Assembly: GCA_029762535.1 (NCBI GenBank)
Contig: JARVGK010000033.1
Coordinates: 1 to 35,840, forward strand
Source of the DNA: Thermoplasmatota archaeon
GTDB taxonomy: Archaea > Thermoplasmatota > Penumbrarchaeia > Penumbrarchaeales > Penumbrarchaeaceae
DNA length: 35,840 nucleotides
Direction: 5' to 3'
The translations under genes and the position numbers were made by a program. Within the stretch, counting starts at the first letter, position 1. The number at the start of each line of letters is the position of its first letter. The notes under the pieces are model-generated. The model made no database searches. It was not told where the DNA came from and saw only the letters and a program-made list of their open reading frames with translations. Below, piece by piece: positions 257 to 4,374 of the stretch.

Positions 257-573
257 GTGCCACCCATATTGGGTAGCTTATTTATAAATCTTTCTATGCT
301 GGCTAGTTAAGGTCTTTTGGGTAGCGCAATAAGAAGTGAAAAATGACTGGCTATATCCGAAAATTTCGACCCTTACTTATATACTCTTAAATTTGAGCTT
401 GAAATCTTACCTATCGATCTCGTTCCAAAGAGCCAAAGTTCCGGATCCGGGAATTTATCATCGATCCAGTATAGAGAATGCGGGGTCGACCGAGTCCAGT
501 TATGTAATTTGATATCAGATGATCAGCCCAATCAACCAATGTCTTTATATCTTGGGAAGGATATTATTTTTTC

Positions 574-765
574 ATGAAAGTAAGGGACGCCATCAAATTG
601 CTGGAATCCGATGGCTGGTTCCTTGTCAAAGAGAAATGAAGCCATATGCAGTTCAAGCACAAGGAGAAGAAAGGGAGAGTTACCATAGCAGGTCATCCCG
701 GCAATGAGCTGGCCAAAGGAACGTTGAACAGCATATTGAAACAGGCCCAATTAAAGGAAAGGTGA
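574..765 (+). pseudogene. hicA: HicA-family toxin (mRNA interferase) interrupted by an in-frame TGA at 637-639
   Basis: MKVRDAIKLLESDGWFLVKEK*SHMQFKHKEKKGRVTIAGHPGNELAKGTLNSILKQAQLKER*. Typical HicA length and motifs; the stop replaces the Gly of the conserved GSH motif. The terminal stop overlaps the hicB start (GTGA). Confidence 0.88.
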
Positions 766-1007
766 AAGTAATGTACAAGTTCATGATAGTCATTGAAAGA
801 ACGGATACGGGTTATTCCGCATATTCACCTGATCTTCCCGGTTGCGTTGCCACCGGTGAAACAAAGGAAGAAACGGAGCAGAATATGTACAACGCCATCG
901 AAATGCATATAGAAGGATTGAAAGAGGACGGCCTACCCATTCCCGAACCATCGACATTCGCGGAGTACGTCCTCATCAGTGATAGGGTTGTCAATGCTGT
1001 TCAATAG
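762..1007 (+). CDS. hicB: HicB-family antitoxin (short form without DNA-binding domain)
   Basis: YSAYSPDLPGCVATGET.EE...N..NAIEMHIEGL.EDG.PIPEP is the HicB partial RNase H fold signature; directly downstream of hicA. The start may be ATG 771. Confidence 0.9.
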   Translation: MKVMYKFMIVIERTDTGYSAYSPDLPGCVATGETKEETEQNMYNAIEMHIEGLKEDGLPIPEPSTFAEYVLISDRVVNAVQ

Positions 1008-1067
1008 AATGGATCAATTTTCTCATCATAATGGATATGAACTATGGCTTGAGCGAGAATAATAAGC

Positions 1068-1297
1068 GGGCCAGACCGGACATTTGAAAAATGCATGATG
1101 GCATTTTCCATGTCTGAAATGATCGCTTCGCTCCTCATTTCAGATCCCGCAGGAAACCGAAGGTTTCCGAGGGTGCAGGAAAATCGCAGCATTAAGCCAT
1201 TTACTATTACGATTTTCCTAGCATCGAACTCTAATTGATGTCTATGTCTGGCCCACCATAAATAACATAAAAATAGTAGGTGGGCCAGACCGAGTCC
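1068..1297. repeat. tRNA-3'-end/hairpin repeat unit A (four hairpins)
   Basis: GGGCCAGACCGGA (1068-1080, reverse complement of the tRNA 3' end); hairpins at 1088-1107 and 1113-1144; GGAAACC-GAA-GGTTTCC and GGAAAATCG..CGATTTTCC; then GTCTGGCCCACC / AT-rich spacer / GGTGGGCCAGACC. 1143-1292 matches 3873-4022 at 147/150 by eye. Confidence 0.92.
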
Positions 1298-1369
1298 GGA
1301 TCGCTGTTTCTATTTTAGGGATAATTAAATAATACTCCGAAACATTTATGCTCCTATGAAAGTGATATA

Positions 1370-1642
1370 ATGGCAGTAAATAATATCTTGATTATAGGTT
1401 TGATTGTTGGAAGTGTTTTTATCATTGGGTTGATCGGCCTGATGGCATCTGCAGGACATGAAGCTGCTGATGATTGGTTCGGTCATGATCACCATGATGG
1501 TGAGGAATGCGAAGAGCACCACCATTTCTATGAATTCTGGGACAATGATCATCATCACGGGCATCACCATGATGAGAATGACCACGATGAGTGTTTGGAT
1601 GAGGAAAATACCGAGAATGGCACTGTAGCTAAAATAAATTAA
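1370..1642 (+). CDS. Small membrane-anchored His/Asp/Glu-rich protein, putative metal-binding
   Basis: N-terminal hydrophobic helix followed by HDHHDGEECEEHHH...DHHHGHHHDENDHDEC; co-oriented 45 bp upstream of the Cu ATPase. Confidence 0.7.
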   Translation: MAVNNILIIGLIVGSVFIIGLIGLMASAGHEAADDWFGHDHHDGEECEEHHHFYEFWDNDHHHGHHHDENDHDECLDEENTENGTVAKIN

Positions 1643-3796: not shown

Positions 3797-3857
3797 TATT
3801 TTTCAATCTTTAGTATTTAAACCGTTCTTAGAAAAGACAAGCTTAGCCCAAAATGTT

Positions 3858-4028
3858 TGGTGGGCCAGACCGGATCCCGTAGGAAACCGAAGGTTTCCGA
3901 GGGTGCAGGAAAATCGCAGCATTAAGCCATTTACTATTACGATTTTCCTAGCATCGAACTCTAATTGATGTATAGGTCTGGCCCACCATAAATAACATAA
4001 AAATAGTAGGTGGGCCAGACCGGATTCG
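3858..4028. repeat. tRNA-3'-end/hairpin repeat unit B
   Basis: TGGTGGGCCAGACC (3858-3871) and its perfect inverse GGTCTGGCCCACCA (3975-3988) enclose two hairpins; a further direct copy GGTGGGCCAGACCGGATTCG lies at 4009-4028. Confidence 0.92.
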
Positions 4029-4117
4029 TCGTTGGAAAATCGGAGATTTTCCCGATCTTTGAGACTAATACGCATATAACAGACAATCGTCTCAAAGAAA
4101 CCAAGGTTCGAATCCGG
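4020..4117. repeat. T-arm palindrome enclosing two hairpins
   Basis: CCGGATTCG (4020-4028)...AACC-AA-GGTTCGAATCCGG (4099-4117), with GGAAAATC-GGA-GATTTTCC (4034-4052) and TCTTTGAGAC...GTCTCAAAGA (4056-4098) in between. Confidence 0.85.
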
Positions 4118-4149
4118 CAAATTGACATAGTTCTAGGTAAAAGAAAAAA

Positions 4150-4300
4150 TGGGCCAGACCGGATCCCGCAGAAGGTCATCAGACCTTCGAGGGCCCCGGA
4201 AAATCGCAGCATCAAGTATCTTTTCAGCACGATTTTTCGAGGGTCGAACTCTAATTGATGTCTAGGTCTGGCCCACCATAAAAAACATAAAAATAGTAGG
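4150..4300. repeat. tRNA-3'-end/hairpin repeat unit C (diverged, abuts the tRNA)
   Basis: Same layout as units A and B, with different stem sequences (GAAGGTC-ATCA-GACCTTC; CCCCGGAAAATCG..CGATTTTTCGAGGG). The distal ~70 bp is almost identical to A/B and runs into the real tRNA. Confidence 0.9.
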
Positions 4301-4374
4301 TGGGCCAGACCGGATTCGAACCGGTGACCCTCCGGTTATGAGCCGGATGCTCCACCTGGCTAAGCTACTGGCCC
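4301..4374 (-). tRNA. tRNA with CAT anticodon, most likely tRNA-Ile2 (CAU, agmatidine-modified)
   Basis: GGGCCAG TA GCTTAGCCAGGTGGAGC A TCCGG CTCATAA CCGGA GGGTC ACCGG TTCGAAT CCGGT CTGGCCC A. Full cloverleaf, no intron, CCA not fully encoded (ACCT). The GGGCC acceptor stem is typical of archaeal Ile rather than Met tRNAs. A TATA-like TTTTAATA lies ~40 nt upstream. Confidence 0.93.

Follow-up and report, generated by a model that had tools for sequence, protein, structure and literature searches.

Tandem accretion and cis-mobilizable elements (CIMEs) are known from bacterial tRNA attachment (att) sites (reviewed in PMC5704250), and archaeal arrays of integrated elements that re-use a single site have been described as well (PMC6563490). 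Archaeal integrons and clusters of attC sites lacking integron-integrases (CALINs) are arrays of cassettes rich in toxin-antitoxin (TA) modules (PMC9668308). A further type of tRNA-associated sequence are the tRNA-linked repeats (TLRs) of E. coli, which occur in one to five copies per locus directly downstream of a tRNA gene (Egan and Landy, 1978, in PMC8144298). Their 3' end repeats the last 18-19 bp of the upstream tRNA, and their function is largely unknown (PMC8144298). Here, we describe a locus that combines features of these systems. It lies in a stretch of 35,840 nucleotides (the window), which forms the first 35.8 kb of contig C29 in a metagenome-assembled genome (MAG) of an uncultured Thermoplasmatota archaeon from sediment (G000; 2.96 Mb, GC 0.53). 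The locus is a dynamic, cassette-like array that is anchored on a tRNA gene, probably tRNA-Ile2, and consists of gene-less folded units and small gene cassettes. For comparison we used a set of 24 genomes of the same family (G numbers, including G000), the further relatives L205, L213, L214 and L215, and the metagenome-run haplotypes X2 and X6.

The anchoring tRNA (4299-4374, minus strand) was found by ARAGORN and scored 68 bits with Rfam. ARAGORN labels it Met, based on the CAT anticodon. Since the gene is identical to tRNA-Ile(GAT) of G000 at 68 of 76 positions (89%), and the remaining two CAT tRNAs of this genome are Met-like (one initiator-like with A1-U72, one elongator-Met-like with an intron), it is likely tRNA-Ile2 as judged from its sequence. 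An initial annotation, made from the DNA sequence alone, had named it tRNA-Ile, and the similarity to tRNA-Ile(GAT) makes this label likely. The last 13-15 nt of the tRNA (GGTCTGGCCCACC) are referred to as the core, and the minus strand of the window as tRNA sense. The motif GGGCCAGACC is present eight times in the window, always within 1068-4311, where 0.21 occurrences were expected and none of 100 shuffles reached eight. Plus-strand copies are located at 1068, 1282, 3862, 4012, 4151 and 4302, inverted copies at 3975 and 4265, and an inverted copy matching at 12 of 13 positions at 1246. The 10-mer GACCGAGTCC is found at 488-497 and 1288-1297 (0.14 expected). Two direct repeats of 150 nt (1143-1292 and 3873-4022) are 98% identical (147/150), and a third copy (4163-4312) reaches 75%. 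All positions of tRNA 3' ends given in the initial annotation were correct and far above chance expectation, and its shared 10-mer and its long repeats around the cop block were recovered too. In tRNA sense, six modules follow the tRNA: unit C (4150-4298), the twin-hairpin module E2 (4031-4149), unit B (3861-3984), the cop cassette (1298-3860), unit A (1067-1254) and the hicAB cassette (498-1066). Every module border is a copy of the core.

Comparison of public contigs with positions 1-5200 revealed two other haplotypes, both from other studies. The first is represented by X2 (a 6.4-kb contig) and L205 (an assembly in the European Nucleotide Archive), which are 97-98% identical to G000 over the common parts. 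They comprise 395-1242, 3973-4149 and 4301-4431 and hence read, in tRNA sense, tRNA, E2, one unit and hicAB. Two segments are missing: one of exactly 2730 bp, which corresponds to cop together with a single unit copy, and one that coincides exactly with unit C (151 bp), where the joint has 15 common letters. The second haplotype, X6 (a 23-kb contig), comprises 395-1256, 25 other letters and 4150-4316. In this haplotype the tRNA is followed by C, a 25-nt spacer that differs from that of G000, A and hicAB, and E2, B and cop are absent. All strain-level cuts fall at cores, and it is always whole modules that are missing.

The cargo at this tRNA is variable among relatives, too. The array of G020 contains three units, a MNT/HepT cassette and an AbiEi/Eii cassette between two 130-nt unit copies, followed by 17 kb with additional cores, including a hicAB cassette. 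The latter is 86% identical to that of G000 and has the same borders and different neighbors. In G013 the array consists of one unit, hicAB and an AAA_14 ATPase cassette. Behind tRNA-Ile2, G012 carries AbiE, L213 carries AbiE and a 939-aa surface protein, and L215 a C11-peptidase protein. Depending on the genome, the space between the tRNA and hicAB is empty or filled by AbiE, the C11-peptidase protein or 20 kb of DNA. Within genus g3 the flanks of the array are conserved (hycI and a Na/H exchanger), and its length is 3.7 kb in G013 and 22 kb in G020. Cassette orientation is mixed: hicAB and cop are antisense to the tRNA, MNT/HepT and AbiE of G020 are sense. Thus, discrete cassettes cut at copies of the tRNA 3' end, as the initial annotation had proposed, are borne out by the comparison of strains and relatives, and the suggested look at cargo across relatives revealed variation even among strains that are 97% identical.

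The core is flanked by a small set of recurring sequences, here called arms. Arm L (GGACTCGG, tRNA sense) precedes the tRNA-distal core of cop and hicAB in G000; in 14 of the 24 family genomes it has the corresponding position at MNT/HepT, AbiE and other cargo. The proximal core is followed by arm R1 (AAACATTTTGGGCTAA, tRNA sense) or R2 (TATTCTTGACGA-like). As the initial annotation had noticed for its two cargo blocks, short motifs at the borders are shared, and they are arms next to a core. On the left of the core we distinguish three arms (tRNA T-arm, unit 3' end, L) and on the right another three (spacer plus unit, R1, R2). Of the nine combinations, eight were seen around an unchanged core (G000, G002, G005, G008, G009, G013, G020, L213/L215). 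Such reassortment would be the outcome of reciprocal exchange at the core. In G008, G013 and G020, adjacent cassettes are separated by intact L-core-R1 or L-core-R2 sites. Those of G013 are 45-nt junctions that separate cargo cassettes without structured units, so that units are not needed as sites between cargo, contrary to what the initial annotation implied. Enclosed between core-R1 and L-core are cop in G000 and the gene for the 939-aa surface protein in L213. The junctions of the cop block are hybrids, namely unit B-core-R1 and L-core-spacer-unit A. Hence, cop lies in the core between the tandem units B and A, which is why the block is bracketed by the 147/150 repeats. These repeats are two neighboring copies of an ordinary tandem unit and not a cassette-specific site.

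Modules bordered by cores vary between strains, and the arms beside these cores are conserved and reassort. On balance, we favor the view that modules accreted at a tRNA attachment site to form an array without an integrase of its own, with a recombinase acting in trans. According to this model, the end of tRNA-Ile2 would be the crossover site, and each insertion would leave the incoming piece with a restored core at either end. Modules would then accumulate behind the tRNA, every junction providing a new target. Incoming pieces would be of two kinds, gene-less folded units and small gene cassettes without a recombinase gene, the latter bearing arm L distally and R1 or R2 proximally. Whole modules could be lost or relocated by recombination between any pair of cores, and the enzyme would be supplied in trans. 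The TA pairs may stabilize the array and CopB may confer metal tolerance, so that the cargo would combine addiction and adaptation. We infer conservative site-specific recombination with circular intermediates, and any assignment of the kind of enzyme or of a role for the unit fold is likewise conditional. In support of accretion we count the strain-level cuts, the arm combinations, the variable cargo, the hicAB cassette with its different neighbors and the differing array length in genus g3. To these we add the low GC of the cop region (0.39-0.48 vs. 0.53 for the genome) and the patchy distribution of CopB, which is present in three of the 24 family genomes. Its nearest relatives are found in two of the 23 others, G003 (88% amino acid identity) and G013 (59%), and the rest of the family has just a paralogue with 35-39% identity. 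In G003 the gene belongs to a four-gene operon, with neither a tRNA nor a unit adjoining.

Several results weigh against this interpretation. No recombinase gene was found in the window, in line with the initial annotation, or in any array examined, and PF00589 had no match on the 163-kb contig of G020 (C14) that holds the 22-kb array. In G000 there are a single complete tyrosine recombinase, one fragment, one serine recombinase and one IS110 transposase, which are encoded at other places in the genome. Candidate enzymes include a XerA-like protein (C25:101143) and the IS110-type one (C22:32710). A 310-aa integrase near two L-core-R1 sites on contig C102 of G008 was considered as the array enzyme and rejected; it occurs in three of the 24 genomes and always beside tRNA-Thr. 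Among the contigs of the source run, which were all that was searched, there was no circle or attP-type joint. The compact L-core-R1 junctions fold no better than shuffled sequences (z 0.15 to -1.0) and have no clear dyad symmetry. Furthermore, losses between direct repeats of 15-150 nt can also be explained by slippage or homologous recombination, and the presence of hicAB near tRNA-Ile2 in seven of the 24 family genomes (0.1-20 kb away) is also compatible with vertical descent.

The search for recombination genes gave some further observations. The serine recombinase of G000 (289 aa, C58:77885-78322) lies 340 nt from tRNA-Cys, and the tyrosine-recombinase fragment (C53:7817-8068) is found beside tRNA-Arg(TCT) and tRNA-Trp at a contig end. 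Y1-HUH transposases are absent from G000, and no TnpB scored above the cut-off in this genome. A scan for sigma-70 promoters and terminators was uninformative for an archaeon. Arms and cores were also sought elsewhere. In G000, motifs L, R1 and R2 do not occur outside the tRNA-Ile2 locus. Scans with the L-core pattern gave eight matches in viral contigs and at least 119 in metagenome contigs, which we dismissed as chance matches in high-GC DNA with no usable context. On G008:C102 a four-gene block (L038) is enclosed by two L-core-R1 sites (1896-1930 and 4695-4729). The two sites have the same arms around cores of different tRNAs, one of Val-CAC type and one of Ile2 type, and lie 2 kb from the tyrosine integrase beside tRNA-Thr. 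At a collapsed site in G003 (C61:10815-10849, L035), an inverse core directly abuts core plus R1; a unit body is missing, and there is no tRNA in the vicinity. The site marks the start of an island that comprises AbiE, DUF6398 and the cop operon.

A different account would invoke passive repeat dynamics, that is slippage, unequal crossing-over and homologous recombination among tRNA-linked repeats, with the genes being old chromosomal neighbors that became trapped. Indeed, behind 19 of the 40 tRNAs of G000 there are one to four gene-less tandem units, each ending with the 3' 12-mer of the respective tRNA, so that the structured sites of the initial annotation are no specialty of this array. 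Both indels of X2 are flanked by direct repeats (15 and 150 nt), and the recurrence of hicAB near the same tRNA would suit trapped neighbors. The cop operon of G003 has a core-R1 site at a distance of 9 kb, and their relative orientation is the same. However, passive dynamics leave unexplained why unrelated cargo (cop, MNT/HepT, AbiE, AAA_14, surface proteins) is enclosed by cores whose L and R arms are the same, and why eight of nine arm combinations exist. The patchy CopB, with a relative's copy outside arrays, and hicAB among new neighbors are not accounted for either. The differing 25-nt spacer beside unit A argues that X6 is not a simple deletion of the G000 form. We therefore regard passive repeat dynamics as rather unlikely, while deletion by homologous recombination between repeats is a partial alternative to the favored accretion model.

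In units A, B and C, a 21-nt AT-rich spacer is followed by an inverse core, the structured body and finally a direct core. The gene-less units are 120-190 nt long. Unit B, on the minus strand like the others, is an intact 124-nt four-helix unit that scores 142 bits with our covariance model. Its closing stem is formed by the inverse core paired with a core copy. All of its 33 pairs are Watson-Crick, and the fold has z = -6.0 for either strand. Unit C scores 129 bits, with the unit proper at 4150-4274 and the spacer at 4278-4298. In unit A (97.7 bits) the four-helix body (1142-1244) is joined to a twin-hairpin module (1081-1144), and a core copy occupies 1067-1081. The unit is chimeric in that the four-helix body ends at GGGATC and is followed by the 64-nt twin-hairpin module. 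This tail resembles the unit ends of G013 and G020 (...AAATGTCCGG plus core) and is common to all three haplotypes. Module E2 (minus strand) combines two hairpins with an inverted T-arm of the tRNA (4105-4117), and its end is the core copy at 4009-4030. The module is of the type found behind tRNA-Arg, Leu, Val and others in G000. A perfect 13-bp hairpin (3975-4030, minus strand, z = -8.0) is formed by the core at 4009-4021, a 21-nt AT-rich loop and the inverse core at 3975-3987; the copy of the tRNA 3' end extends here to 4030 (20 nt). In an alternative pairing, the inverse core and the next core close the four-helix fold. At the distal junction of the cop block (1255-1297, minus strand), an AT-rich spacer (1258-1278) and a core copy (1279-1291) follow arm L, and a 12-bp hairpin involves the inverse core at 1246-1257. 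An Rfam scan of 1-5000 matched the tRNA alone; weak tmRNA_permuted and miRNA matches correspond to the core-spacer-inverse-core hairpin.

A consensus obtained with MAFFT and RNAalifold missed the long hairpin, and the four-helix structure was therefore drawn by hand and then checked. In seven copies 98% of the cells were paired, and 12 pairs had compensatory changes. In 20 copies aligned by the model 93.6% of the cells were paired and 31 of 33 pairs had compensatory changes, compared to 29-54% paired cells in slid controls, although the fit of this alignment to the model biases it toward the structure. Nearly all pairs are Watson-Crick; G-U and A-C each make up about 2% of the cells, so that wobble pairs did not discriminate a folding strand. 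Since pairing is almost entirely of the Watson-Crick type and both strands fold equally well, the fold appears to reflect a constraint at the DNA level rather than an RNA made from one strand. Within G000 the unit family is confined to the tRNA-Ile2 locus. In relatives it is found behind tRNA-Ile2 and three tRNA-Val genes, with arms matching the respective tRNA, and the covariance model matches the unit solely behind tRNAs. A miniature inverted-repeat transposable element (MITE) or transposon could thus be ruled out, as dispersed copies are absent from G000. The search of the genome that the initial annotation had recommended as a check hence returned a single locus and no genome-wide MITE. 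Tandem units behind tRNAs occur throughout G000 (example loci are C10:35481, C25:122800 and C58:47556), and several unit families share hairpin modules such as GGAAAATnnn...nnnATTTTCC. About eight tRNAs have tandem upstream copies of their own 5' 12-mer.

The units could be small structured RNA genes, giving tRNA-like minihelix RNAs from the tRNA transcript, with the cargo having arrived separately. The covariation of the four helices would agree with this, and so would the 10-bp closing stem with its discriminator base, which mimics an acceptor/T minihelix, and the T-runs after unit C. Some TLRs of E. coli are in fact processed to small RNAs (PMC8144298). The nearly pure Watson-Crick pairing and the equal fold of both strands fit a DNA-level constraint better. 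Moreover, units come and go between strains that are 97% identical, and none matched an Rfam family. An origin as RNA genes is therefore improbable in our view, but it would be compatible with accretion and does not exclude it.

Even less probable is a true integron or CALIN, in which the units would be attC sites served by an IntI-type integrase encoded elsewhere in the genome, an identity close to the integron-like array of the initial annotation. The TA-rich cassettes are what such a comparison has in its favor. However, the units end in GGGCCAGACC and GGTCTGGCCC and not in RYYYAAC/GTTRRRY, and G013 has no units between its cargo cassettes. The compact junction sites do not fold. Cassettes point in either direction, and the array is anchored on a tRNA gene instead of an attI site beside intI. 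With no attC R/L core sites, no IntI and cassettes that have their own promoters, the identity as an integron could not be upheld.

Finally, a chimeric contig with mis-joined repeats can be dismissed for practical purposes: the repeat has roughly the length of a short read, and a de Bruijn graph would look alike for integrated cop and for a cop-free chromosome plus a 2.73-kb circle, but the common repeat has a depth of 29.8 in the source run, twice that of the flanks (15-16), cop has chromosomal depth (14.9), and the same module grammar recurs in independent assemblies and other genera, so that the assembly artefact considered in the initial annotation does not apply.

Turning to the cargo, the hicAB cassette (0.57 kb, plus strand) contains hicA (564-755), hicB (771-1007) and, adjoining the core, an R2-like arm at about 1040-1066. 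Its distal border (480-497, minus strand), read from the sequence, is a decayed core (480-489) after arm L; the same border of the G020 cassette has an intact core. HicB matches Pfam HicB_lk_antitox (1.8e-12) and its gene is intact. An exact-sequence look-up of HicB returned no record. hicA of G000 is recognizable, and its G020 orthologue matches HicA_toxin at 2.4e-23, so that adjacent toxin and antitoxin domains place the pair among type II TA modules. In G000, hicA is interrupted by an in-frame TGA codon (637-639); the corresponding codon is GGA (Gly) in G020, in L205 and in contigs from three other metagenomes. Hence, the toxin gene is knocked out in the G000 strain only, while the antitoxin gene is intact. 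The cop cassette (2.56 kb, plus strand) begins with a gene for a 90-aa His-rich membrane protein (1370-1642, plus strand). This is followed by a P1B ATPase gene (1688-3796, plus strand) with Pfam domains E1-E2_ATPase and Hydrolase, a CPH motif at 2747-2755 and a His-rich N-terminus (1688-1870), which we take to be a copper pump of the CopB subtype. Arm R1 (approximately 3841-3858) adjoins the core. Pfam therefore confirmed the earlier hicAB and copB gene calls (HicB and a P-type ATPase), with the reservation that hicA is interrupted. Neither Pfam nor PHROGs had a match for the His-rich open reading frame (ORF), G000 hicA or an 85-aa ORF at the edge of the window; the latter proved to be part of an IS1634 transposase.

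The far end of the array is interrupted by the end of an IS1634-family element (1-397, minus strand), which breaks the contig and is not part of the cassette system. It encodes a transposase N-terminus (2-256) whose relatives are 603-aa IS1634/DDE proteins with 59-95% identity. In the source run the element has a depth of 46 vs. 15, about three times chromosomal, and is absent from X2, X6 and L205, which diverge at 395. Beyond it, the chromosome continues on contig C16 (G000:C16:288). On the 5' side of the tRNA, an 8.5-kb segment (4432-12901) encodes a 2499-aa surface protein and a secreted protein of about 250 aa. The segment is absent from L205 (97% identical), in which 57 nt upstream of the tRNA are directly followed by hycI. 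Its borders have no repeat of the tRNA 5' end.

A more far-reaching version of the favored accretion model can be put forward only tentatively. The locus may belong to an undescribed archaeal system of gene capture, with the tRNA 3' end as primary site and arm-core-arm cassettes whose core is matched to a tRNA. The latter is suggested by G008, where an Ile2-type core and a Val-type core have their arms in common. Units would then be non-coding cassettes or targeting and folding elements. Recombination would depend on a host enzyme or on a novel type of recombinase, in either case one that recognizes structure or base pairing instead of a fixed sequence. If the core indeed works as a recombination site, archaea would possess a second route to integron-like gene capture besides classical integrons, with an essential tRNA gene as anchor and no need for a linked integrase. 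The exchange of TA modules, metal-resistance genes and surface-protein genes among abundant sediment Thermoplasmatota would thereby find an explanation. It would also tie gene capture to tRNA-linked repeats, which have been unexplained in E. coli since 1978. The locus would offer a natural system for testing the origin of such repeats, since gain and loss at strain level are visible in public metagenomes.

Among described systems, the array behaves most like the tandem accretion of CIMEs at tRNA att sites and like CALINs. As in CIME accretion, att repeats derived from the 3' end of the target gene flank the elements and integration genes have been lost; for the accreted elements described so far, excision patterns are complex. 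Direct repeats of the tRNA 3' end flank each element, also in relatives, the elements carry no integrase genes, and whole modules are absent from 97%-identical strains. An integrase-bearing partner using the same att site was not found at tRNA-Ile2 in G000, G003, G008, G012, G013, G020, L205 or L213-L215, and this sets the array apart from CIMEs. Also unlike CIMEs, its modules are much smaller (0.13-2.7 kb; those of G020 reach 9.5 kb), and its cassettes have common short arms and are interleaved with folded units bearing an inverse core. Integrative mobile elements exploiting Xer (IMEX) lack a recombinase of their own and lie in tandem at one chromosomal site (dif), where they are served in trans by the host Xer proteins. 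The array resembles them in being made of recombinase-free tandem elements, its site being a tRNA end and not dif. With integrons and CALINs (PMC9668308) it shares small, recombinase-free, TA-rich cassettes, a variable content and a short conserved junction site. It differs from them in lacking attC structure, R/L boxes, an IntI/attI platform and a common orientation or promoter, and its crossover sequence is the tRNA 3' end. Like the TLRs of E. coli, units A, B, C and E2 follow a tRNA and end in 13-20 nt of its 3' end. There is no sequence relation, as the Rfam family rtT, which represents these TLRs, had no match at E values up to 1. In contrast to TLRs, the archaeal units also include the tRNA end in inverse orientation and have a four-helix fold with covariation; they are far more pervasive, and genes are captured between them. 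The array is thus built on a pervasive archaeal counterpart of the tRNA-linked repeats.

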